A program made the position numbers and the translations under genes. A DNA stretch of 53,998 bases from a virus (lineage: Duplodnaviria; Heunggongvirae; Uroviricota; Caudoviricetes), in IMG/VR virus record IMGVR_UViG_2541047728_000014. One strand, given 5' to 3'. Below are positions 6,303-22,241 of this stretch, one piece after another; within the stretch, counting starts at the first letter, position 1; each line of letters starts with the position of its first letter. The notes beneath the pieces are model-generated. The model was given only the letters and a program-made list of their open reading frames with translations, did no database searches and had not been told where the DNA came from.

Positions 6303-7226
6303 TCATTGGCAGCAAACAATCTCTTTAAATGCTTCTTCTACCATGTCGAATACTTCCGGCCTGTAATAAAAAAACTCATTGCTACCATCAAATTTTACAG
6401 GAAAGTTAATTTTATAATTGCTAAAAGCCTTATGCATCGTGTTTTCTAGTTCATGTATATTTTCGGTTGGCCCTTCTAACGTTTTCACGATATGCAAATT
6501 AGGAATTCTAACGCCTGCTTTATGTGCGCTTTTTAATATCTCGTTTCTTCGTTTATTTTCCTGAACACTTACCCCAATTTTCATTTGTGTAGGCACTTCC
6601 AGATCATCAACCATGATGTAAAGTTTGCCATACTCATGACGAAGGAAACCGTATTTCGCGCATTTTGGACAGCCGTACCCGCTTTTAAGGTTGCAAGGCC
6701 TGGCAGACCACTCATGACTACAGATCTTGCAGCGGCACGGGACTTTATCTCTATGGTTCTTAATTTTTCCCAATACTTCAACATAAGTGTTAACTTTGGC
6801 TATATCTGTGATGTGTTCTTCGTGTGTTAATGTCCTTCCTTGTGCGCCTTTTAATATTCCGCATTTCGGGCAACCGCGCCCGCGTTTTAGGTTGCAAGGT
6901 GTAGCCGACCACTCATGACTACAGATATTGCAGCGGCATAATACTTTTGTTTTGTCATTAATAATTTCACCCAACACTTCAATATCAGGATTAACTTTCG
7001 CGATAGCGGCAATATGTTCTTCGTGCGATAACTTCATCTTCCCAGCGCATTTCGGGCAACCGCGCCCGTGTTTTAGGTTGCAAGGTGTAGCCGACCACTC
7101 ATGATCACAAACCTTGCAACGGCATAACACTTTTTTATGATTTCCGGTAATTTCTCCCAGCACTTCAACATCAGGATTAATTTTCGCAATAGCCGCAATT
7201 TGTTCTTCGTGTGTTAACTTGCGCAT
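6303..7226 (-). CDS. Protein with three tandem Cys4 zinc-ribbon repeats and a C-terminal T5orf172/GIY-YIG-like domain
   Basis: 307 aa; three ~50-aa repeats LTHEEHIAAIAKVNPD.EVLGEI....KV.CRC.ICSHEWSATPCNLK.G.GCPKC; C-terminal GKLYIMVDDLEVPTQMKIGVS ... GSNEFFYYRPEVF resembles the T5orf172 family (from memory). Confidence 0.6.
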   Translation of the reverse strand: MRKLTHEEQIAAIAKINPDVEVLGEITGNHKKVLCRCKVCDHEWSATPCNLKHGRGCPKCAGKMKLSHEEHIAAIAKVNPDIEVLGEIINDKTKVLCRCNICSHEWSATPCNLKRGRGCPKCGILKGAQGRTLTHEEHITDIAKVNTYVEVLGKIKNHRDKVPCRCKICSHEWSARPCNLKSGYGCPKCAKYGFLRHEYGKLYIMVDDLEVPTQMKIGVSVQENKRRNEILKSAHKAGVRIPNLHIVKTLEGPTENIHELENTMHKAFSNYKINFPVKFDGSNEFFYYRPEVFDMVEEAFKEIVCCQ

Positions 7227-7600: not shown

Positions 7601-8647
7601 TCAAAGAGCGCCAGCGCGCGTATCACGTAGCGTTTTTGGTTTAAGCAGGAAATCAAGTGTCGCAGTGAAGCCATTGCCGAAGTAAAAATCTGAAGCCGTG
7701 TTTTTGAACGTTTCGAAGTAGGCGACAAAGCCGTTAATGCTTTTGTCTTTCAGGTAGTCAGCGAACGCATAGATCTTGCGTTCAAGATCCCGATCCAGTT
7801 CGGCAGGTGGTAACAGGCCGTCAAACGTGCTGTTAAATGCTTCCACCACGTCGGCAGCGTTTACAGTAGCTGATAGCTTGCGCCATTGCTCAGCGTCAGC
7901 CAGATACCCATCGAATTTAGTTACCCGGCAAATGTTGATAGGCTTAGGTGTTCCACCACGGCTGCGCCATTGCGTCAAAGCCCATTCGATTACTAATGTG
8001 ATCTCATCCTCCGTGTATGCCTTACGTGTTTTTGTTTCTGTCAGTAGTTCGATAAATGGCTTAGCATCACGACACTTGCATCCAGCTTTGTCGTTGTAGA
8101 AGGCCAAGCAACGCAATGCCGCTTCGTTTACGCCATCCTGATTGACCGTTTTTTGTCCATTTTCGCTAATACACGAAGTGTATATATCTTTTTCTCTTTC
8201 TTCTTCTACTTCTAATTCATGACCCTTTCCTGACCCGGTCATGACCCTATCATGACCTTTTGGTGTTGGATTGATTAACTTCTCTAATTTTAATTGCTCC
8301 TTCGCTGTGTTTATAGCAGCCCTATAAGCGCTCTTAGAAGTCATTGATTGGTCCAGCCTTTTTAATAACTTTAGGCAAGTTATGTGGCCTTGAGAACATT
8401 CGAACAAACCAATTTCGATGAAGTATTTCATCATTTCTTCTATACGTTTTTCAGTAGATCCGACGTTTCGCGCAATGATTCTCGCGTCATGTCGTAGGTC
8501 AAAATTCAGATTGTGCTGATCTACGTCATAAGTTATTAGTTCGAGGCAATACCAATAAAGCCCGTACCCTTCCAGGCCATAATCTAACAAAACGTTTTGA
8601 AGTTTTTCATCGCGGTTCGCATCGCTGTCATGCTTAAACCACTTCAT
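7601..8647 (-). CDS. Phage replisome organiser / replication initiation protein (Lin1244/DUF4373-like N-terminus)
   Basis: 348 aa; N-terminal MKWFKHDSDANRDEKLQNVLLDYGLEGYGLYWYCLELI matches the conserved N-terminal domain of phage replication initiators; CCGGAGG RBS. Confidence 0.7.
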   Translation of the reverse strand: MKWFKHDSDANRDEKLQNVLLDYGLEGYGLYWYCLELITYDVDQHNLNFDLRHDARIIARNVGSTEKRIEEMMKYFIEIGLFECSQGHITCLKLLKRLDQSMTSKSAYRAAINTAKEQLKLEKLINPTPKGHDRVMTGSGKGHELEVEEEREKDIYTSCISENGQKTVNQDGVNEAALRCLAFYNDKAGCKCRDAKPFIELLTETKTRKAYTEDEITLVIEWALTQWRSRGGTPKPINICRVTKFDGYLADAEQWRKLSATVNAADVVEAFNSTFDGLLPPAELDRDLERKIYAFADYLKDKSINGFVAYFETFKNTASDFYFGNGFTATLDFLLKPKTLRDTRAGAL

Positions 8648-8650
8648 AGA

Positions 8651-8902
8651 TCATCCCTCCGGCAACATCACTACATAGACATCACTGAATGCATCAAGAC
8701 GACAAACAAATCCTTTATCCATTAACGCGGCGAAGGCATCATGTACCGTATGAACAGGAAGTTCACACATTGCGGCTACTTCTTTGCGTGATGCATCATG
8801 TACCCGTCCTTTGTTATCTGCCTTTTCAGCCAGAGCCATTAAGACAAGTTTTTGAATCGGGCTATTAAGTTTTACGTTCCATGCTTTACTAATCATACTC
8901 AT
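8651..8902 (-). CDS. Winged-helix/HTH DNA-binding protein, first gene of the leftward early operon (Cro/CII-position regulator)
   Basis: ORF 8651..8980 opens with TTG; ATG start at MSMISKAWNV preferred (AGGAGA RBS about 8 nt upstream); HTH-like LVLMALAEKADNKGRVHDASRKEVAAMCELPVHTVHDAFAALMDKGFV; transcribed divergently from cI. Confidence 0.55.
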   Translation of the reverse strand: MSMISKAWNVKLNSPIQKLVLMALAEKADNKGRVHDASRKEVAAMCELPVHTVHDAFAALMDKGFVCRLDAFSDVYVVMLPEG

Positions 8903-9093
8903 CGCATTTTCTCCTATGGTTAGAGTGAACGCGCGGGCGGGCATCCCATTAGCATTAGATAGCAGTGACTGACCGCTCAACAGATCCCGCCGTTGCGTGA
9001 TATTTGTTTTTCGCTTCGCAGCGACACCGGATTTTTAAAGAGCATAAGGTAAGTGCCTTTTTGTGCCTTCAGTTATCTTTTTCCTTGCGTCTT

Positions 9094-9177
9094 TGCAAGT
9101 ATGGCCTTACCTTGTCTGCAAGTTTACAAAATGGAATTTTAAGATCAAGGCTTAAAATACACGTTTTGTGACTTGCA
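9094..9177. promoter_or_regulatory. cI / early-operon divergent control region with ~27-bp inverted repeat and TGCAAGT repeats
   Basis: TGCAAGT at about 9094, 9117 and inverted at 9171; arms TGCAAGTTTACAAAATGGAATTTTAAG (9117-9143) and the reverse complement of 9150-9177 are near-identical; candidate leftward promoter TTGATG-16-TATTTT on the minus strand. Confidence 0.5.
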
Positions 9178-9207
9178 TCAAACTTTTTGAGGTTATAGGG
9201 TAGCGAC

Positions 9208-9855
9208 ATGAAAACAAAATGGTATGACTTAGCAAAGCAGCTCATGCGGGCGCAGGGCATGAGCCAGGATTCACTCGCGGATCGTATGGGGATAACTAAA
9301 GGCGGCCTGTCACACTGGCTGAACGGTCGCCGAGAGCCAAATCTTGAAGATATTGCGCGGATTATGCGCGAGCTTGGTCGTCGGCAGTTTACTGTTACAC
9401 ATGATGGCATGGTCATTGATGATTCTGTTTCTAATACACTTCAGGCCGTGCCGCCGCGTGATTTAGGTAGTTACCCGGTTATTGACTGGAAGGACACAGT
9501 AAACAATATGGATGACGCAAGGCGTTCAGCATTACGACACGTTACGACTAGCGTTATTTGTTCAGATGACAGTTACTGGCTGGTTGCCAAAGGTGAATCA
9601 ATGAACGCGCCGCAGGGGTTGAGCATCCCGGCGGGGACGATGATACTTGTGGACCCGCACGCGCCAGCTATTGACGGCAAACTGGTTATAGCCCAGCTTG
9701 AGGAAGGGCAGATACCGACGTTTAAACAGTTGATTATTGATGGAGGTCAAAGGCTTTTACGTTCGCTCAATCCGCTGTATCCGCCAATCCCTATGAATCC
9801 AGAATCAAAAATTATAGGCGTGGTGGTTGATGCGAAGATCGTAAACCTGCCATAA
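9208..9855 (+). CDS. cI: CI-like prophage repressor (HTH plus S24 LexA-like peptidase domain)
   Basis: 215 aa; N-terminal HTH (MSQDSLADRMGITKGGLSHWLNGRREP); C-terminal S24 domain with GESMNAP (Ser) and TFKQL (Lys) dyad. Confidence 0.9.
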   Translation: MKTKWYDLAKQLMRAQGMSQDSLADRMGITKGGLSHWLNGRREPNLEDIARIMRELGRRQFTVTHDGMVIDDSVSNTLQAVPPRDLGSYPVIDWKDTVNNMDDARRSALRHVTTSVICSDDSYWLVAKGESMNAPQGLSIPAGTMILVDPHAPAIDGKLVIAQLEEGQIPTFKQLIIDGGQRLLRSLNPLYPPIPMNPESKIIGVVVDAKIVNLP

Positions 9856-9860
9856 ACATT

Positions 9861-9886
9861 AGCCGCCGAATGGCGGCTTTTCTTTG
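9861..9886 (+). terminator. Rho-independent terminator after cI
   Basis: Hairpin GCCGCC-GAAT-GGCGGC followed by TTTTCTTT directly after the cI stop. Confidence 0.65.
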
Positions 9887-9978
9887 CCTGGAAAACACCA
9901 AAACGTAAACAGAAAACGTTATTTATTATTTAAATATCAATGGCATATAAAATATTTTAAAAAAGTATACAAAATGGA

Positions 9979-10007
9979 TTGACTCGATGTTTTACGGGGC
10001 GTATATT
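9979..10007 (+). promoter_or_regulatory. Candidate pL-like early promoter
   Basis: TTGACT-N17-TATATT (-35 at 9979-9984, -10 at 10002-10007), preceded by an AT-rich tract and a GTATACAAAATGG motif copy; about 350 nt upstream of the N-like gene. Confidence 0.45.
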
Positions 10008-10261
10008 GCGAGTCAAAGGAAGGGCGCAGGTAACAAAAGCAACTTCCTGGCACTTTAAAAATCAGGCTTAACACCTTGTCAACCGTGGAGTAACTCCCCG
10101 ATGGGGGACCGAAAGCGGCACTGATAACAAGGCGCATGGGGTGTTTAAAGCGTTACATCCCCCACGAAACCGCACGCAAGGCGACGAGTCAGCTTGCTTG
10201 GAGTGAGCAAGGTCACGCCGGGAACGGCGATGATTGCGGGATTAGTTGAAAGATGTTAAGC

Positions 10262-10299
10262 CGCTCATTAACAATCTGGTCAGCCGCTGGAAGTGCGGC
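10262..10299 (+). promoter_or_regulatory. nutL-like site (boxA plus boxB hairpin)
   Basis: CGCTCATTAA resembles boxA consensus CGCTCTTA; 11 nt later hairpin GCCGC-TGGAAGT-GCGGC (5-bp stem) as a boxB candidate; lies in the leader of the N-like gene. Confidence 0.45.
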
Positions 10300-10355
10300 A
10301 ATTAACGAAGATGATTTTTTATTAAGTATCATCAAGGATATACGGAGATCAGATT

Positions 10356-10646
10356 ATGAGCGTTACAATTATATATGGTAAATGTGATAGCAAAATGAAT
10401 GCCAGGGAACGCAGAAGGATAAAAAGAGAAAACGAAAGAAAATCATCACCTGCAATCAATAAAACAGACAATGTGGATAAAGCTATTCGATTTGCAAACG
10501 AGGAAAGATGCAAACCAAATAGCATTAAAGAACGTCGCAAAGGATCAGTAAAATGGTATACGGAAAATGAAAGCGGCAGCTACTACCACGCAACGCAACC
10601 ACGCCATTTAGGGGAAAAACCCCTGGATAAAGTCCGCTACCATTAA
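10356..10646 (+). CDS. N-like transcription antiterminator (arginine-rich motif protein)
   Basis: 96-aa basic protein; MNARERRRIKRENERK resembles the arginine-rich motif of lambdoid N proteins; first gene after the candidate pL and nut site. Confidence 0.55.
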   Translation: MSVTIIYGKCDSKMNARERRRIKRENERKSSPAINKTDNVDKAIRFANEERCKPNSIKERRKGSVKWYTENESGSYYHATQPRHLGEKPLDKVRYH

Positions 10647-10676
10647 TACAAAATGTAAACATCCGGAGGTGACATT

Positions 10677-10799
10677 ATGGTTATTCAGGCGCTTCAATTC
10701 AAACTGGCAGTAGCGGAAATGCTTCACGATGCCGAAATGTGGAGCGCCGCGAATAAAGCCTTATACATAGTGTTAACAGCACGGGAGATTAAATGGTGA
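10677..10799 (+). CDS. Small hypothetical protein (40 aa)
   Basis: Hand-called ORF MVIQALQFKLAVAEMLHDAEMWSAANKALYIVLTARENKW; CCGGAGG RBS 7 nt upstream; stop overlaps the erf start (ATGGTGA). Confidence 0.4.
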   Translation: MVIQALQFKLAVAEMLHDAEMWSAANKALYIVLTAREIKW

Positions 10800-11437
10800 A
10801 AACAGAGTTACATAAAAAGCTATGGACGATTCAGCAAACGCTGAACGCGCCGAAAAATCAGCGTAATAATTTTGGTGGATATAATTACAGGTCGGCGGAG
10901 GATATTTTAGAGGCGGTTAAACCACTGCTTCAAAGTATTACGCTGACTGTAAGCGATGAAATTGTCCTGATCGGCAATCGCTATTATGTGAAAGCTACGG
11001 CGACGCTAAGCGACGGTGAAGACGAAATAGCGGTAACGGCTTACGCCAGGGAAGAAGAAAGCAAGAAGGGAATGGACGCAAGCCAGCTAACAGGTGCGAC
11101 ATCAAGTTACGCGCGAAAATATGCTTTGAACGGTTTATTCTGCATTGATGATGCGCGAGATCCTGATACTGACGCATACGCTAAGCAGACAGGCCAGCAG
11201 CCTCGCCAGCAGAAAAACCCACCAAAACAACAACCACAGCAGCAGAAAGCGCCGCCAAATCCTGATGAAGTATTAGCACGTTTCTGTGATGCAGCAGCGA
11301 AAGCGCAGGACGCTAACAAGCTGCGTGAAATATTTGGCAAATGCTGGAAATTACTACCGGAAGGATCGGAACATCGAATCAAGGCAAAAGATGTTTATGA
11401 CATCCGGGTAGCAGAGCTTAACGGGGAGATGGGTTAA
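10793..11437 (+). CDS. erf: Erf-family single-strand annealing protein
   Basis: 214 aa; LNAPKNQRNNFGGYNYRSAEDILEAVKPLL...IVLIGNRYYVKATATLSDGEDEI...KKGMDASQLTGATSSYARKYALNGLF closely resembles P22 Erf as recalled. Confidence 0.8.
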   Translation: MVKTELHKKLWTIQQTLNAPKNQRNNFGGYNYRSAEDILEAVKPLLQSITLTVSDEIVLIGNRYYVKATATLSDGEDEIAVTAYAREEESKKGMDASQLTGATSSYARKYALNGLFCIDDARDPDTDAYAKQTGQQPRQQKNPPKQQPQQQKAPPNPDEVLARFCDAAAKAQDANKLREIFGKCWKLLPEGSEHRIKAKDVYDIRVAELNGEMG

Positions 11438-11856
11438 TGAGTTTAAATTCAATCACGCTGGGCGGGAATATCGGTAATGATATGGAGGTTCGCTACACAC
11501 AAAACGGGAAAGCGATTGGTAGTTTTCCGTTAGCTGTAACGAATGGCTACGGCGATAATAAGCGGACAATGTGGGTCACTTGCCTGGTATTTGGCGAGCG
11601 TGCGGAAAAATTGGCGCCACATATCCGTAAGGGTGGAAAAATAGTGGTAAGCGGTCGCCTGGATGTTCGGCAATATGACCGGAACGACGGCACGAAGGGG
11701 ACTGCGGTAGAAGTGGCGGTTAATGAATTTGAATTCATGAATGTTAACCAACAAGGCCAGCAGCAAGGACAGCAGCAGAAAGCGCCGCCGCAGCAGCAGA
11801 ATAATAACGGGAATAATCCGCCTCCGATGGACTTCGACGACGATATTCCTTTTTAG
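11437..11856 (+). CDS. ssb: Single-stranded DNA-binding protein
   Basis: 139 aa; OB-fold-like N-terminus, Gln/Gly-rich linker and the acidic C-terminal tail DFDDDIPF characteristic of SSB. Confidence 0.88.
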   Translation: MSLNSITLGGNIGNDMEVRYTQNGKAIGSFPLAVTNGYGDNKRTMWVTCLVFGERAEKLAPHIRKGGKIVVSGRLDVRQYDRNDGTKGTAVEVAVNEFEFMNVNQQGQQQGQQQKAPPQQQNNNGNNPPPMDFDDDIPF

Positions 11857-14670: not shown

Positions 14671-14863
14671 ACATTACATGGAATGGAAAATTCCAGAAGC
14701 AGCAACAAAGGCAGCGCCAGGAAATTATTCTGGCGTTTATTTTTATATGGATGGCAAATGGTATTTCGGCAGCAGGCCGGATCACTATTATCAGGAAATA
14801 TGCAAGCCTCACGTATGGGATATTAAAGAGCGTGTGAAAGGCGGGGTAATTGAGGACGTTTAA
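14660..14863 (+). CDS. Hypothetical protein (67 aa)
   Basis: ORF; no recognisable domain. Confidence 0.45.
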   Translation: MKFKHYMEWKIPEAATKAAPGNYSGVYFYMDGKWYFGSRPDHYYQEICKPHVWDIKERVKGGVIEDV

Positions 14864-14864
14864 A

Positions 14865-15101
14865 ATGCTTAAGAGCTTTTTTAACTGGTTGGGGGCGTGG
14901 CTTTTGGCTACGCTTTTTGTTTTCCTGGCGGCCATGACTGTTATCGGTGTTATTATGCTGGGGGCTATTTTTATTACGTGGTCGCTTCCTGAATTTAACG
15001 ACATTGGGAATATTCTTTTTGCAGCCCGCGCTTTATTGGCTGTTAGCGCATTCATTGGTTTTTGCTGGACTGCCGCGCCGGATTGGACTGACACATGGTG
15101 A
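14865..15101 (+). CDS. Small membrane protein (two predicted TM helices)
   Basis: ORF 14850..15101; start placed at MLKSFFNWLG (GAGGA RBS); hydrophobic stretches LGAWLLATLFVFLAAMTVIGVIMLGAIFI and ALLAVSAFIGFCW. Confidence 0.5.
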   Translation: MLKSFFNWLGAWLLATLFVFLAAMTVIGVIMLGAIFITWSLPEFNDIGNILFAARALLAVSAFIGFCWTAAPDWTDTW

Positions 15102-16372: not shown

Positions 16373-16876
16373 ATGGAAAGGGTGACAATTGACAGGTTAT
16401 TAGCCTGCGTTTATGTCGCCGTTTTTGTGATCATCAATCTTATTGTTAATCATTGCGGCCCGTGGGTAATTCCGATCACCACGGTAGCCGCCGTGTGTGT
16501 CAATATGATGATCCGTGACCTCCTGTTATATGACGGCGGCCTGAAATGGTCGGCTACAACATGCGCCGCCGCTGGCGCAATCACGGTGCTGATAAATTAC
16601 GACGCCGGAATGGTGGCGATCGCGTCATTCGTTGCGGTTGTTTCCGGTGCACTTATTTCTGGCGGCGTTTACCGGGTTTTGCCTGGTGGCTTTGATTCTA
16701 AACGTTGGCCTGCAAATATAGCGTCCGCCATTGGTGATGCGTTAATTTTTCCTACGCTATCGTTTATGGCGTTTATGCCGGAAATATCAGCTATGCAATT
16801 CATCTCAAAAATGGCAGCGGTAACGGTGATCACCATCATTATGCGCCGCTATTTCACGTTTGAGGGTAGAAAATGA
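16373..16876 (+). CDS. Polytopic membrane protein, possibly YhhQ/DUF165-like queuosine-precursor transporter
   Basis: ORF 16331..16876; start placed at MERVTIDR; several hydrophobic helices; weak resemblance to YhhQ motifs (MIRDLLLYDGG, IGDALIFPTLSFMAF); family assignment unverified. Confidence 0.35.
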   Translation: MERVTIDRLLACVYVAVFVIINLIVNHCGPWVIPITTVAAVCVNMMIRDLLLYDGGLKWSATTCAAAGAITVLINYDAGMVAIASFVAVVSGALISGGVYRVLPGGFDSKRWPANIASAIGDALIFPTLSFMAFMPEISAMQFISKMAAVTVITIIMRRYFTFEGRK

Positions 16877-17631
16877 GCAGGGCTAAACATTGGTTAAATA
16901 ATTGGCTTAGAAGTTGGGTGGTGTGGTCGCTGTACGACGGCAGCGGGTACGCCGTTAAAGATTGGGCGGAAGCTGGATATAAGTGCTATTGCTTCAACTA
17001 TGACGGCGCAAATCACGGAGATTATGAAGGCGTTAAAATCATTCATCCAAATATTGAATACGTTAACGTCTGGATTGATAGCCATTTCCTGGTAATGTTC
17101 TCCCCTGAATTGTCTGTTTATCCAGAGCCTGACATTATCCTGGGCTTTCCTCCATGCGACGATCTCGCTGTGTCAGGCGCTCGCTGGTTCGTTGATAAAT
17201 ACAGGAAAGATCCTTGTTTTCAGAATAGGGCGGCAAGAAACGCAATGTTGGTTGAATCTCTGGCTAACATGTATAACGTGCCGTGGATGGTGGAGAATCC
17301 TGTTGGTGTGCTGTCAACGCTATGGCGTAAACCGGATTTTATCTTCAATCCTTGCGCTTACGGTGGCTACCTGCCGGAAGATGACAAGCATCCTGCTTTC
17401 CCTGATGTTTACCCACCGCGCGACGCGTACACGAAGAAAACTTGCATATGGTGCGGCAACGGATTCAGGCAGCCGCTTTTTAGACCTGTAGATCTTAACT
17501 CTGGTGATAACCCTGGGTGGGCGAAAACCGGAGGCAGGACGAAACGAACAAAGATGATCCGCTCACTAACACCGCGTGGCTTTGCCCGTGCTGTATTCCT
17601 GGCTAACCATGACCGCGTTTTATCGGACTGA
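16873..17631 (+). CDS. Truncated C5-cytosine-methyltransferase-like protein (PCD instead of PCQ, no obvious target-recognition domain)
   Basis: 252 aa; motif I-like LYDGSGY, motif IV-like ILGFPPCDDLAVSGARWF, motif VI-like MVENPVG with canonical spacing; CIWCGNG Cys pair near the C-terminus; too short for a canonical C5 MTase. Confidence 0.5.
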   Translation: MSRAKHWLNNWLRSWVVWSLYDGSGYAVKDWAEAGYKCYCFNYDGANHGDYEGVKIIHPNIEYVNVWIDSHFLVMFSPELSVYPEPDIILGFPPCDDLAVSGARWFVDKYRKDPCFQNRAARNAMLVESLANMYNVPWMVENPVGVLSTLWRKPDFIFNPCAYGGYLPEDDKHPAFPDVYPPRDAYTKKTCIWCGNGFRQPLFRPVDLNSGDNPGWAKTGGRTKRTKMIRSLTPRGFARAVFLANHDRVLSD

Positions 17632-17713: not shown

Positions 17714-17790
17714 TTCAAGCAAACAAAATGCTCTTTAAAAATCCGGCAGCGCTGAAATGCGTAGAAATCACCTGAAAAGGAGAGAGCATT

Positions 17791-17981: not shown

Positions 17982-18587
17982 ATGCAAAACCCTAAAAAAC
18001 CCATAAGACGCCGTTGCAAATGCTGCGGCGTTTTTTTTGAGCCTAAATATCACAATCAAACGTGGTGCAGCGATGAATGTCTGGAAGAACTGAAGTTTGA
18101 CCAGCTATGCCGCGACCGTGAGAAGGCTATGAAGGCTATGGAGCGGAAGAAACGCCGTGATAGCCAGAGGGAAGAACGCAACCGGAAGCGTAAACAGTTA
18201 AATCCGCGTAGTTATTGGATCAAACAAGTTCAAAATGTATTTAACGCCTATATTCGCGAACGTGACGCGCGCTTGCCGTGTATATCTTGCGGGACTTACT
18301 ACGGTGAGCAATGCGGGTGGGATGCAGGTCATTACAGGACGGTAGCCGCCGCCGGACACCTTCGCTTCAACGAGGATAATTGCCATAAGCAATGTAGGCA
18401 CTGCAACCAGACACTAGACGGCAACATCGGAGGGTATCGCCCGGCGCTGATTCGAAAAATTGGCCTCGCCAGGGTGGTAGCTCTGGAGAACAACAACGAT
18501 ACGCATAAATGGACGATTGCAGAATGTAAGGAGCTAATAAACATCTATCAGGCGAAATTGGACGCCTTAAGGAGAAAGGCAGCATGA
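17982..18587 (+). CDS. ninG: NinG/Rap-like recombination protein
   Basis: ORF 17892..18587; start placed at MQNPKKPIRRRCKCCG; PRSYWIKQVQNVFNAYIRERDARLPCISCGT...WDAGHYRT.AAAGHLRFNE.N.HKQC..CNQ closely resembles lambda NinG as recalled. Confidence 0.8.
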   Translation: MQNPKKPIRRRCKCCGVFFEPKYHNQTWCSDECLEELKFDQLCRDREKAMKAMERKKRRDSQREERNRKRKQLNPRSYWIKQVQNVFNAYIRERDARLPCISCGTYYGEQCGWDAGHYRTVAAAGHLRFNEDNCHKQCRHCNQTLDGNIGGYRPALIRKIGLARVVALENNNDTHKWTIAECKELINIYQAKLDALRRKAA

Positions 18588-18991: not shown

Positions 18992-19170
18992 AAAACGAAG
19001 TTAAAGATCTGCAAATAGATATTCAGCGCGACGAGCGTGATTTAGAGACGGTCCGACAAATCCAGGCTTTCCACATGCGCGAATTACTTGCGCTGAAAGA
19101 GTTCGAAAGAAAGCTGGTGCAATCCATTTCTGATCGTAAACGGCTGGCGGCGCGTTATGAGGGCAAATAA
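18988..19170 (+). CDS. Hypothetical small protein (60 aa)
   Basis: ORF overlapping the rusA stop and the Q start. Confidence 0.45.
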   Translation: MKNEVKDLQIDIQRDERDLETVRQIQAFHMRELLALKEFERKLVQSISDRKRLAARYEGK

Positions 19171-19898
19171 TGAATTTAGAATCCATTCTAAAATTCCACT
19201 TTCCTAAATCACCGCGATTATCTGACGAAAGCCGGGGCACGTCCCCGGACGCTCTTAATACGACGGATGCGCTAACCGCTGCGGGTATGGCGCAATCGCG
19301 CGTAGAGCTTGGATATGGCGCTTTTTTAGGGAAGATGGAACTATCACAAGCCGAAAAACATAGGGCCGTAGTTTTGCTTACAGAGCGTTTAAGGGCTATG
19401 GCGAAAGATTACGAATACGTGATGGAGTTAAACGAGGATCAGCGCAATGGACTTATTATTCTTGTTGCCGTTTTCGCGTTTCGGGATTATTGCCAGAGTG
19501 CGGCGACCGAAAAAGTTTGCCCTAAGTGCGGCGGCCACGGGCATTTACCAAATCCATATTGCAAATACACATCGACAATTTGTTCGCGGTGCAACGGCAA
19601 AGGCTACGTTAAAAACCATTGCCAACGTTGCAAGGGGCGCGGAGAAGTACCGGATAAAGCAGCCAGTGAAGCGGCGGAAATGCCAGTATTCAAAACGTGC
19701 CAGCATTGCGGCGGGCGCGGGTACTCGCGTTTCCCGGTAGATCTCGTCCGGCAGGCCGTTAACCAGCTTGTTTTCCCGGTAAGCAGATCAACATGGTGGA
19801 AGAAATACCGGGTTTTCTATGAAGACGCCATAGCGGAGCTATTCAAAGAAGAGGCCCGCGCGGAAAGCGAAATTAAACGAGTGACACGGGGTGAATAA
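19170..19898 (+). CDS. Q: Late-gene antiterminator Q (lambda Q family)
   Basis: 242 aa; N-terminus MNLESILKFHFPKSPRLSDESRGTSPDALNTTDALTAAGMAQS...FLGKMELSQAEK parallels lambda Q (MRLESVAKFHSPKSPMMSD...) as recalled; Cys-rich zinc-binding region with four CxxCxGxG units. Confidence 0.82.
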   Translation: MNLESILKFHFPKSPRLSDESRGTSPDALNTTDALTAAGMAQSRVELGYGAFLGKMELSQAEKHRAVVLLTERLRAMAKDYEYVMELNEDQRNGLIILVAVFAFRDYCQSAATEKVCPKCGGHGHLPNPYCKYTSTICSRCNGKGYVKNHCQRCKGRGEVPDKAASEAAEMPVFKTCQHCGGRGYSRFPVDLVRQAVNQLVFPVSRSTWWKKYRVFYEDAIAELFKEEARAESEIKRVTRGE

Positions 19899-22007: not shown

Positions 22008-22241
22008 ATGCGTATCTATGAACACAAGCGGGATAAAACCCGCTTTTTTGTTCGTGCTGGCGTGGCGTACCAGTATCACGAATGTGGATATATTGAGGTG
22101 CTTGCTTACAACCTGGATTTCGAACAAGAAAAAGAATGGTTTGACTTTAAGATTTACCGGAAGCGTAAACCGACGCGCGACGAGCGACACGCTATCCGGG
22201 ACTTTTTAATCAGCATAGACCGCTGGGAGACAGAGGAATGA
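22008..22241 (+). CDS. Hypothetical small protein (77 aa)
   Basis: ORF in operon packing. Confidence 0.45.
   Translation: MRIYEHKRDKTRFFVRAGVAYQYHECGYIEVLAYNLDFEQEKEWFDFKIYRKRKPTRDERHAIRDFLISIDRWETEE

Follow-up and report, generated by a model that had tools for sequence, protein, structure and literature searches.

The closest described relative of the locus analysed here is the Gp17/nut system of coliphage mEp021 and the mEpimmI group (Valencia-Toxqui et al. 2023, Arch Virol 168:92; Negrete-Mendez et al. 2025, PMC11893012). According to the accessible text of PMC11893012, which cites the former study, mEp021 Gp17 has been shown experimentally to be a lambda-N-like, Nus-dependent early antiterminator that acts at three sites, nutR1 (upstream of gp17), nutR2 and nutL; its arginines 17, 19, 20 and 24 are conserved, and gp17 is kept in all 48 genomes of the mEpimmI group. 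The same report demonstrates the repressor function of Rep021 (section 3.3), and its accessible text makes no mention of an optional leader domain, of operator-like repeats or of joint variation of the arginine-rich motif (ARM) and boxB. In lambda, likewise, an ARM protein, a boxA-boxB RNA and host Nus factors bring about processive antitermination. About 200 nt separate the lambda nutL site from the N gene downstream, and N together with Nus factors at this site represses N translation, an effect modulated by RNase III, as described in the accessible text of PMC5725501 (citing Wilson 1997 and 2002). In P22, the order is c2, pL, boxA CGCTCTTTAAC, 9 nt, boxB and gene 24, and the boxB loop is GACAA, a pentaloop in which one base is looped out (PMC12550061).

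We analysed a window of 53,998 nt, the whole of the IMG/VR viral record IMGVR_UViG_2541047728_000014. Over positions 9860-10700 it is 100% identical to an E. coli prophage, 99.4% to MagusPhagus, 96.6% to mEp010 and 93% to mEp021. The window has the immunity repressor and the gene order of the mEpimmI phages, and it represents a temperate coliphage or prophage of this group (mEp021-type). In its antitermination system it differs from mEp021 only in alleles, and MagusPhagus and mEp010 are closer to it than mEp021 is; the repressor gene is 86-91% identical among relatives. As in mEp021, an orthologous antiterminator gene follows the repressor gene and a terminator, the same arginines are conserved, and three nut sites stand at the same relative positions. 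The module is therefore already known as the published Gp17/nutR1 system, and the window adds no new system; the new point is an optional, almost invariant, folded RNA domain of about 200 nt in the leader. With high confidence, we read the region as the repressor-controlled early promoter, nutR1 and N-type antiterminator gene of an mEpimmI-group coliphage (Table 1). An earlier note on this DNA had proposed a coherent N-antitermination module of individually weak elements, and this reading is supported: the elements jointly exceed chance, with a gp17 orthologue and three nut sites, while the promoter match alone does not.

Table 1. Features of the early region in the window (positions in the window; ranges read on the strand given).
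Feature	Position	Strand	Basis or remark
nutL: boxA TGCTCTTTAAAAA (9044-9032), boxB UCGCU-GCGA-AGCGA (9024-9011)	9011-9044	-	leftward early transcript, toward replication genes
CI/LexA-type repressor gene	9208-9855	+	Pfam HTH_3 and Peptidase_S24; annotated repressor in mEp021 and mEp013
Intrinsic terminator 3' of repressor gene (AGCCGCCGAATGGCGGCT and TTTTCTTT)	9861-9878	+	annotated terminator in mEp021 and mEp013
Operator-like 16-mer AAGTATACAAAATGGA	9963-9978	.	adjoins the -35 hexamer; repeat search
Early promoter TTGACT-N17-TATATT	9979-10007	+	10/12 sigma-70 match; predicted start ~10014/10015
5'-proximal leader hairpin GGAAG...CUUCC	10018-10047	+	RNAalifold columns 5-9/32-36; 20/20 sequences
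boxA-like GCACTTTAAAA	10050-10060	+	5' edge of the insert; in all long-form leaders
Optional closed multi-branched leader RNA domain, 198 nt	10065-10262	+	predicted fold, conservation, presence/absence
Hairpin CUUGCU-UGGAGUG-AGCAAG	10193-10211	+	in the domain; compensatory changes
Hairpin CGCCG-GGAA-CGGCG, GNRA loop	10216-10229	+	in the domain; loop GGAA or GAAA among relatives
nutR1 boxA CGCTCATTAACAA	10262-10274	+	10/11 against the gamma-proteobacterial consensus GYTCTTTAANA (PMC5725501)
nutR1 boxB GCCGC-UGGAAGU-GCGGC	10283-10299	+	hairpin; helix covaries across nut variants
Hairpin GAUGAU-(12 nt)-AUCAUC	10310-10333	+	between nutR1 and the ribosome-binding site; missing in type B relatives
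Shine-Dalgarno GGAG	10344-10347	+	8 nt 5' of the ATG; annotated RBS in mEp021
gp17 orthologue, 96-aa N-like antiterminator	10356-10646	+	ARM NARERRRIKRENERK at residues 15-29; orthology, PHROG, hhalign
nutR2: boxA TGCTCTTTAAAAA (17729-17741), boxB GCGC-UGAAAU-GCGU (17749-17762)	17729-17762	+	ahead of NinG/RusA/Q-like genes

Downstream of the N-like gene lie Kil-like, Erf and SSB genes, a methyltransferase gene occupies 16873-17631 with nutR2 downstream of it, and NinG, RusA and Q-like genes come after nutR2; candidate terminators on the plus strand are found at 14713-14737, 14891-14917 and 18012-18030. Like lambda N, the gene is the first of its early operon and stands beside the immunity region. 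The rightward operon of the window joins functions of the lambda pL type (N, kil, recombination) with those of the nin/Q region. The earlier note had named the promoter and site after lambda pL and nutL; the published name of the site is nutR1 and the operon is called rightward, whereas the comparison is apt functionally by gene content (N-like, Kil-like, Erf, SSB). In P22, as in the window, the antiterminator gene lies 3' of the repressor gene and in the same direction, and genes of the Kil, Erf and Abc2 types lie downstream. The repressor gene and the N-like gene share their direction in lambda as well.

The 96-aa protein is basic (pI 9.96, 24 K+R) and carries MNARERRRIKRENERK at residues 14-29, as the earlier note had said. 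Its amino acid identity to mEp021 Gp17, of which it is the orthologue, is 92.7%, and R17, R19, R20, R21 and R24 are all present, among them the four arginines conserved in Gp17 (R17, R19, R20 and R24; PMC11893012). AlphaFold2 gave a mean pLDDT of 57, with mostly low confidence and helices at residues 16-30 and 36-50; the protein is small, basic and mostly disordered with an N-terminal arginine-rich motif, as expected of an N-type protein. When it was compared with known N proteins, one family, phrog_271 ('anti-termination protein N-like'), proved common to Gp17 (1.3e-13), lambda N (4.1e-23) and P22 gp24 (6.9e-40). An hhalign comparison of the Gp17 family with P22 gp24 gave an E value of 4e-4 and a probability of 34% over 47 columns with 38% identity, the match spanning MTVxIxYGK, NA(R/K)xRR and a second block, DxVxKAIxxA. 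The N terminus of P22 gene 24 reads MTVITYGK...NAKTRRHERRRK, that of Gp17 M(S/T)VTI(I/M)YGK...NARERRRIKR, and the second block common to both reads DRVTKAISLA in P22 and DNVDKAIRFA in Gp17. Gp17 has about 18 residues fewer between the two shared blocks, and its C-terminal half (WY.ENESG.Y.HATQPR.LGE.PL) is unrelated to P22 gp24; similarity to lambda N is limited to the ARM and to the profile level. In Pfam, Gp17 scored 15.9 bits against PF25694 (N_peptide; threshold 27.9) and did not match PF11438, a tblastn search of phages with E values up to 1 returned the mEpimmI group only and no lambdoid N gene, and a PDB sequence search found no N peptide. The homology of Gp17 with N thus rests on PHROG and hhalign. 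The family is narrow, with 31 clusters all at least 60% identical, so that it offers no distant loci with which the RNA alignment could be broadened.

Recognition of boxB by an ARM is common to lambda N and HK022 Nun, and what happens to RNA polymerase afterwards is not readable from sequence alone. The basic protein could in principle be a Nun-like terminator or exclusion factor, or only a translational repressor, using the same recognition. We regard this as extremely improbable: the 92.7%-identical protein of mEp021 antiterminates in reporter and infection experiments according to the accessible text of PMC11893012, the gene opens a long operon that contains terminators and, before the Q-like gene, a second nut site, and no genome of the group, by the same text, has lost it among the 48.

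The case for an N-type antiterminator is strengthened by the nut sites. The earlier note had placed a boxA and a boxB hairpin, with a 7-nt loop instead of the lambda pentaloop, just before the gene; both are found at 10262-10274 and 10283-10299, separated by a spacer of 8 nt, and the loop, UGGAAGU, is indeed 7 nt long and belongs to a family of GNRA-type loops. Against known nut sites, boxA is near consensus and the layout resembles that of P22 nutL, with which it shares a spacer of 8-9 nt and a GC-rich boxB stem of 5 bp closed by U. The nutR1 boxA departs from GYTCTTTAANA once (T5 to A), reads GCTCTTTAACA or GCTCTTTAATA in relatives, and is accompanied in the window by the perfectly matching boxA sequences of nutL and nutR2. 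These boxA sequences fit the same gamma-proteobacterial consensus as those of the rrn operons and suhB. The rrn and suhB boxA, however, acts without a phage protein, whereas every boxA here precedes a boxB hairpin whose changes go along with those of a phage ARM protein.

A search for [CT]GCTC[AT]TTAA with a GC-rich hairpin 3-13 nt after it returned three sites in the window (10262+, 17729+ and 9044-), where 0.05 were expected and at most two occurred in any of 200 shuffles; all three are intergenic and oriented with transcription. They lie upstream of the gp17 orthologue, upstream of the repressor gene, in agreement with the published position of nutL (PMC11893012), and, 7.5 kb beyond nutR1, on the 3' side of the methyltransferase gene, which are the published relative positions. 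Lambda has two nut sites where the window has three. Since the pair at 10262-10299 is the only one upstream of the 96-aa gene, we take it to be the published nutR1, on the grounds of position and uniqueness. Across nut variants the boxB helix is 92.7% paired with six different stems, four of its five pairs are changed on both sides, and its covariation score was reached by 0 of 500 shuffles. Among relatives, ARM type and boxB type change jointly. The loops are U-GAAA-U, U-GAAA-A, U-GCGA-A and U-GGAAG-U, that is, GNRA-type loops flanked by U or A, and the 6-nt forms UGAAAU, UGAAAA and UGCGAA become GNRA tetraloops when one takes the flanking U-U or U-A to be a closing pair. None of these boxB loops has the GNRA-like 5-nt pentaloop geometry of lambda and P22 (GACAA in the latter) or the hexaloop geometry of phi21; they represent a variant loop geometry.

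The promoter described in the earlier note is present and is the top sigma-70 match within 8500-11500. This interval contains seven promoter-like sites against 6.0 expected, which is not above chance, so the consensus match by itself is weak; in the 37 distinct leaders of relatives, on the other hand, both hexamers are invariant and the 17-nt spacer is variable. Transcription would start near 10014/10015. The operator-like 16-mer next to the promoter is invariant among relatives and has a second, 94% identical copy at 9120-9135 in the divergent promoter region, and we infer that the repressor binds at these two putative operators.

Taken together with the published work, these features suggest the following sequence of events. 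In the absence of the CI-like repressor, transcription would begin near 10014, and the nascent RNA, as read from its sequence, would bear boxA and the boxB hairpin of nutR1. The first gene product, the largely disordered 96-aa protein, would then bind boxB through its N-terminal arginine-rich helix, as its homology and the joint change of ARM and boxB indicate. Together with host Nus factors at boxA, it would render RNA polymerase resistant to terminators, as published for mEp021 Gp17, and the modified polymerase could pass the terminators of the long rightward operon (Kil-like, Erf, SSB, etc.). At nutR2 the modification would be loaded again ahead of the NinG/RusA/Q-like genes, and nutL may play the same role for the leftward replication operon.

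The leader spans about 342 nt from the predicted start to the ATG. The earlier note had called it an ORF-free leader of about 350 nt that could also host a small RNA, and each part of this statement needs to be qualified. Free of ORFs of at least 60 aa, it nevertheless contains three small ones of 30-42 aa, which are annotated in some GenBank records, not in RefSeq. Its length is as described in the window, but only because an optional insert of about 215 nt lies between the promoter and nutR1; in about a quarter of the relatives (mEp013, mEp044, mEp554 and other short-form phages) the insert is missing and only some 45 nt separate nutR1 from the start. As to a small RNA, the leader does contain a selected, structured RNA domain, whereas nothing establishes it as a separate sRNA. 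Long, highly structured leaders are common to lambda and the window, with nut site and structured part in the opposite order: lambda and P22 have the nut site near the start, as do the short leaders of the window group, and P22 has a structured leader of about 155 nt after nutL, while in the window the structured domain precedes nutR1.

When the structure of the leader was predicted, a closed domain of 198 nt was obtained, with a minimum free energy of -77.6 kcal/mol and z = -3.67. It is closed by GGCUUAACA (10065-10073) pairing with UGUUAAGCC (10254-10262), and the predicted closing helix, whose 9+3+5 bp are separated by small interruptions, would suit RNase III as a substrate. Because the domain folds on itself, nutR1 function would stay intact. 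Nucleotide diversity within the domain is 0.012, about 14 times less than at neighbouring third codon positions (0.17), and the insert with nutR1 is 98.5-99% identical to mEp021. This leaves too little variation for covariation to be assessed over the whole domain, and one helix is informative: the hairpin at 10193-10211 has an alternative allele, AUCACU-UGGAUUG-AGUGGU, in which three pairs are changed on both sides and one U-A pair becomes U-G, so that the plus-strand RNA is favoured. The allele follows the Gp17/boxB type in 23/23 and 8/8 cases.

The same two alleles bear on whether the insert is conserved as coding sequence for a 37-aa protein, gp16 in the annotation of mEp021 (10136-10249 in the window). 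This ORF is annotated in mEp021, MagusPhagus and others and, by eye, neither hairpin allele interrupts it. The alleles differ at eight bases, however, which replaces six amino acids across eight codons (L>I, A>T, S>I, Q>W, G>C, A>T) with pairing preserved, and the rest of the ORF is nearly devoid of synonymous variation, against a diversity of 0.17 at third positions of neighbouring genes. Conservation also continues for about 70 nt upstream of the ORF, its start is deleted in one variant leader (L094), there is no PHROG match, and RefSeq has no gene there. We therefore consider a conserved gp16 protein very unlikely, and rejected it as a coding gene on the substitution pattern.

The insert might also be functionless, either left over from a small mobile element or a scar of recombination, and have spread recently. 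Some relatives have it and others do not, with sharp boundaries; 9-bp inverted repeats (GGCTTAACA and TGTTAAGCC) form its ends; and its sequence is almost the same in genomes that differ by 10-20% in the flanks. Yet blastn against phages and E. coli genomes found it only at the same locus of the same phage group, in one copy per genome; exact-pattern scans found it in none of the species-representative genomes and, in viral and metagenome contigs, only in mEpimmI contexts; and no second copy was found within the window. Since it occurs once per genome at one fixed site, and 5,426 E. coli genomes, 50,697 phage records, species-representative genomes and metagenomes gave no further location, we rejected a dispersed repeat or MITE. 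Moreover, the hairpin at 10193-10211 has diverged at 8 of 19 nt, about the neutral rate, with compensation, while at most three positions differ in the remaining 179 nt, which argues for an old element under selection rather than a recent spread. A functionless insert thus appears improbable.

The domain may be a new, strongly selected phage RNA element that works with the N-type system, as a module for gp17 processing, stability or translation, as a second hairpin recognised by Gp17 (10193-10211), or as an early RNA with a role of its own; we consider this possible, though less likely than not. By analogy with the structured lambda N leader, which RNase III processes, our best guess, with low confidence, is that it acts in cis, on the stability or processing of the early transcript or by tuning gp17 expression. 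An independent early RNA, which might be processed into an sRNA acting in trans or serve as a protein sponge or anti-defence decoy, would account for its being optional, like accessory or moron functions, and for its extreme conservation; the 9-bp helix could allow excision as a unit, and the compensatory changes with their U-G pair speak for a plus-strand RNA. No known family matches: Rfam 15 gave nothing at gathering score in the whole window, and a permissive search of 9800-10800 brought up nothing relevant, with no match over 10030-10250 at E values up to 10, and ARAGORN found no tRNA or tmRNA. The insert, however, has no promoter or terminator of its own and no evidence of processing, and it occurs at one position only, directly upstream of nutR1, in one phage group. 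The perfect association of the variable hairpin with the Gp17/boxB type suggests a relation in cis, although simple linkage over 70 nt would also explain it. On balance, we consider an independent RNA unlikely.

The domain is a small but real lead, being so much less variable than neighbouring synonymous sites and yet absent from a quarter of the relatives. If it does control the expression of an N-type antiterminator, or has its own function, it would add a regulatory RNA to those known from phages, in a genetically tractable E. coli system; the phage group is a common one in human guts. Two comparative results sharpen the picture of the known system: the jointly changing boxB stems and ARMs, of at least four to six types, offer natural specificity pairs for studies of RNA-peptide recognition, and the boxB loops are of GNRA type flanked by U or A in place of the classical pentaloop.

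Two small elements lie 5' of the closed domain. The boxA-like sequence at the 5' edge of the insert matches, with its 3' flank, 15 of 17 bases of the boxA and spacer of nutL and nutR2; since one-mismatch matches to GYTCTTTAANA are at chance level (10 against 8.8 expected), it is a lead only. The 5'-proximal leader hairpin shows a single change, G-C to G-U, among the 20 sequences.

Identity of the window over positions 9860-10700 is 99.4% with Escherichia phage MagusPhagus, 96.6% with mEp010, 95.0% with mEp515 and 93.1% with mEp021, and a prophage of E. coli LP-26-E1-261 matches it at 100%; among complete genomes of E. coli, 35 of 5,426 carried one copy each. The mEpimmI phages, to which mEp021 and MagusPhagus belong, are Nus-dependent temperate coliphages of non-lambdoid type that originate from human faeces (PMC11893012). 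Their N-like protein Gp17, encoded in 48 of 48 mEpimmI genomes with fully conserved arginines 17, 19, 20 and 24, has three targets: nutR1, which precedes gp17; nutL, which precedes the repressor gene; and nutR2, which follows a methyltransferase gene (PMC11893012). That paper, citing work of 2023, describes Gp17 as the N-lambda-like protein that experiments identified with early antitermination. Identity between the window ORF and mEp021 Gp17 is 92.7%, and the ORF keeps all four arginines. An earlier note had proposed a pL-like promoter, a nutL-like boxA/boxB and an N-like antiterminator at 9979-10646. In the region 9400-11200 all its elements are present where it had placed them, and its interpretation is supported by the Gp17 orthology and the published nut-site system. 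The module is not new: a further mEpimmI isolate or prophage here carries the Gp17/nutR1 system already published. Our additions are modest, namely the proof of boxB by covariation, a catalogue of types of boxB and of the Gp17 arginine-rich motif (ARM), a link to P22 gp24 beyond the ARM, candidate operators, and a leader domain that is optional yet ultra-conserved; of these, only the leader domain might reward experimental work.

Features of the gp17 region and of the three nut sites (window positions)
Feature	Strand	Coordinates	Details
Repressor gene, CI/LexA-type		9208-9855	HTH_3 + Peptidase_S24
Strong intrinsic terminator		9861-9878	followed by an AT-rich stretch
Promoter TTGACT-N17-TATATT		9979-10007	10/12; top promoter match within 8500-11500
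Leader			342 nt; no ORF of at least 60 aa
Ribosome-binding site GGAG		10344-10347
Basic ORF (gp17)		10356-10646	96 aa; pI 9.96; NARERRRIKRENERK at residues 15-29
nutR1 boxA	+	10262-10274	CGCTCATTAACAA
nutR1 boxB	+	10283-10299	GCCGC-UGGAAGU-GCGGC
nutL boxA	-	9044-9032	TGCTCTTTAAAAA
nutL boxB	-	9024-9011	UCGCU-GCGA-AGCGA
nutR2 boxA	+	17729-17741	TGCTCTTTAAAAA
nutR2 boxB	+	17749-17762	GCGC-UGAAAU-GCGU

A 3 kb scan returned seven promoter-like sites against 6.0 expected, and the consensus match by itself is not above chance. Among 37 distinct leaders both hexamers are invariant while the spacer between them varies, and this comparison of relatives gives the promoter the support that the consensus match cannot. 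The 16-mer AAGTATACAAAATGGA adjoins the -35 hexamer, and beyond the repressor gene a second copy occupies 9120-9135 in the divergent promoter region, an arrangement expected of operators. The copies at 9120-9135 and 9963-9978 have the operator-like form AAGT(T/A)TACAAAATGGA, and an imperfect inverted repeat of 27 nt (9117-9143 / 9151-9177) is found in the interval that separates the leftward operon from the repressor gene. We predict 9117-9177 and 9963-9978 as candidate sites for the CI-like repressor, undescribed in the literature consulted.

Across the 54 kb, the pattern [CT]GCTC[AT]TTAA with a GC-rich hairpin 3-13 nt downstream occurs three times (10262+, 17729+, 9044-), against 0.05 expected and at most two in 200 shuffles. 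All three sites, matched by position to the published nutR1, nutL and nutR2, are intergenic and oriented along transcription: nutL on the leftward transcript that runs to the replication genes, and nutR2 7.5 kb downstream of nutR1, after the methyltransferase gene (16873-17631) and ahead of genes for NinG/Rap, RusA and a Q-like protein (19170-19898). The boxA shared by nutL and nutR2 is perfect against the gamma-proteobacterial consensus GYTCTTTAANA (PMC5725501). The nutR1 boxA is the odd one out, in agreement with PMC11893012, where nutR1 is noted to vary more than the other nut sites. Terminator-like sites on the + strand (14713-14737, 14891-14917, 18012-18030, 22026-22045) give the antitermination system something to override.

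A perfect boxA consensus match, GCTCTTTAATA, lies antisense to the early operon at 14821-14831 (- strand), and is probably due to chance since no boxB-like hairpin was found after it. Duplicated terminator-like matches at 6867 and 7053 reflect the repeated coding units of the gene at 6303-7226 (- strand), which encodes a 307-aa protein where a zinc-ribbon unit of about 60 aa (…HEEHIAAIAK.NPD.EVLGEI…CPKC…) occurs as three copies in tandem, and whose mEp021 counterpart is annotated as a zinc-ribbon domain protein. The nutR1 boxA-boxB spacer AAUCUGGUC (10273-10281) is complementary over 9 bp, one of them G-U, to GAUCAGAUU (10347-10355), which follows the Shine-Dalgarno sequence and precedes the gp17 AUG. 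In the minimum free energy (MFE) fold of the full leader these two segments are paired, and relatives with type B Gp17/boxB retain only about 5 bp; the pairing may couple nut occupancy to gp17 translation, or may be chance.

Loci of relatives, gathered from IMG/VR, public assemblies and metagenomes, contained six versions of the nutR1 boxB: GCCGC-UGGAAGU-GCGGC, GCUAC-UGAAAU-GUAGC, GCAC-UGAAAU-GUGC, UCGC-UGAAAU-GCGA, GCAC-UGAAAA-GUGC and GCUC-UGAAAA-GAGC. When these were aligned with nutL, nutR2 and P22 nutL, standard pairs occupied 92.7% of helix cells and four of the five pairs had changed on both sides. The covariation score was 0.391 against 0.135 in shuffles, none of 500 shuffles reached it, and it was far lower in every slid register. 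The ARM type varies together with the boxB type: NARERRRIKRENERK occurs with the loop UGGAAGU, NAR(K/A)RRRMKRAAEQ with GCUAC/GCAC-UGAAAU, NARTIRRMKRRAAEQ with UCGC-UGAAAU, and NARERR(R/K)LKRAGK with UGAAAA. These comparisons are evidence for boxB as a genuine RNA helix and for its pairing with the protein. The loops share a GNRA-type core (GAAA, GCGA, or GGAA inside UGGAAGU) with U or A flanks, and differ from the lambda/P22 pentaloop (PMC12550061).

Simple searches give no link from Gp17 to lambdoid N proteins; profile methods appear to give one. A tblastn search with Gp17 at E up to 1 matched only seven mEpimmI phage records, and no N peptide was found in a PDB sequence search. Against Pfam PF25694 (N_peptide) Gp17 scored 15.9 bits, under the cut-off of 27.9 and about equal to lambda N itself (16.4 bits). 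Gp17 matches phrog_271, 'anti-termination protein N-like', at 1.3e-13 (divergent relatives at 1.7e-9 to 1.8e-6), as do P22 gp24 (6.9e-40; gene 24 taken from AB362338.2) and lambda N (4.1e-23). P22 gp24 and Gp17 align from residue 1 (MTVITYGK...NAKTRRHERRRK / M(S/T)VTI(I/M)YGK...NARERRRIKR) and in a second block (DRVTKAISLA / DNVDKAIRFA). BLASTP gave E 0.017 over the first 20 residues, and hhalign of the Gp17 family profile against P22 gp24 gave E 4e-4 over 47 columns at 38% identity; P22 gp24 is without a counterpart to the C-terminal half of Gp17. The AlphaFold2 model is of low confidence (mean pLDDT 57, pTM 0.23). Its only helices span 16-30 (the ARM) and 36-50, consistent with an N-type protein that is disordered for the most part.

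The P22 layout equals the plan of the window: c2, pL, boxA CGCTCTTTAAC, 9 nt, boxB GCGCUGACAAAGCGC, about 155 nt from nutL to the gene, and gene 24. Downstream of gp17 lie genes for a Kil-like protein (10677-10799), Erf and SSB, which resemble those of the P22/lambda pL operon; for this reason the label 'pL-like' is functionally apt, although the published name of the site is nutR1. The Kil-like ORF (40 aa; Lambda_Kil 21.1 bits, below the Pfam cut-off of 27.6; phrog_2055) adjoins gp17 and strengthens this likeness. In locus L006, a prophage of E. coli E21845/O/A, an HNH endonuclease gene (2410-2877) sits between the Kil-like gene and erf, an example of early-operon mosaicism in one relative.

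The matches to mEp013, mEp044, mEp554 and several prophages covered no more than 71-77% of the query. Alignment revealed short leaders without about 215 nt between promoter and nutR1, corresponding to an insert at about 10031-10248 in the window; their nutR1 begins about 45 nt past the predicted start, like in lambda and P22. The extra segment is predicted to fold into a closed, multi-branched domain in which GGCUUAACA (10065-10073) pairs with UGUUAAGCC (10254-10262), the closing helix ending on base 1 of boxA (MFE -77.6 kcal/mol; z = -3.67 versus shuffles). At the 5' edge of the insert, 10050-10064, GCACTTTAAAAATCA(GG) agrees at 15 of 17 bases with the nutL/nutR2 boxA and its spacer (GCTCTTTAAAAATCCGG), so that the domain is flanked by a boxA-like sequence and the real nutR1 boxA; this is only a lead, because boxA matches with one mismatch occur in the window about as often as by chance (10 found, 8.8 expected). 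In one variant (L094, a contig of Logan ERR14001007), upstream of its gp17, an internal stretch of about 115 nt is deleted from the domain, joining GGGGGACCG to GAAACGGCG and retaining the closing helix and the 3' part; the deletion could be natural, between short repeats, or an assembly artefact.

The domain is missing in about a quarter of relatives (26 distinct long leaders, 10 short), and both forms are found with different Gp17 types. In the phage, E. coli, species-representative and metagenome sequences searched it occurs only at the gp17 leader locus of the mEpimmI group, without a second copy in the window, and PMC11893012 makes no mention of it. A functionless mobile remnant is one alternative reading of such an element. 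Over 36 distinct long-form genomes, diversity (pi) in the domain outside one hairpin was 0.012, compared with 0.168 and 0.176 at third codon positions of the repressor gene and gp17 and 0.06-0.08 in flanking non-coding stretches, about 14 times below neighbouring synonymous sites. Between the window and the most distant long-form prophages, identity was 94-94.5% in the domain, 87-90% in the repressor gene and 76-80% in gp17. Recent spread is argued against by the old, compensated divergence of one hairpin in an otherwise frozen sequence: this hairpin (10193-10211) holds 8 of about 11 domain differences, and its alleles, CUUGCU-UGGAGUG-AGCAAG and AUCACU-UGGAUUG-AGUGGU, differ by three pairs changed on both sides and one U-A to U-G. 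As the U-G would be an A-C mismatch on the opposite strand, the selected molecule is the + strand RNA. The allele is linked to the Gp17/boxB type in 23 of 23 and 8 of 8 cases, which may reflect functional coupling or plain linkage over 70 nt.

Alternatively, the domain might be a micro-protein gene, and some records (RefSeq not among them) annotate here a 37-aa 'gp16' ORF (10136-10249), which has no PHROG match. We rejected gp16 as a conserved protein, because the hairpin alleles replace amino acids (L>I, A>T, S>I, Q>W, G>C, A>T) and synonymous changes are nearly absent from the remainder of the ORF. The domain could also be an independent early RNA; it had no Rfam match, and no tRNA-like gene was found.

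Our first guess is a cis role, predicted to lie in processing, stability or gp17 expression, since the predicted closing helix (9+3+5 bp with small interruptions) resembles the irregular duplexes cut by RNase III. In the Discussion of PMC5725501, lambda nutL is placed about 200 nt upstream of N in a long, structured leader, and N with Nus factors at nutL is described as repressing N translation, modulated by RNase III (citing Wilson et al. 1997, 2002). In contrast to lambda, the window has a structured leader part before the nut site. A tight fold would also keep the 250-nt untranslated leader from serving as a Rho entry site.
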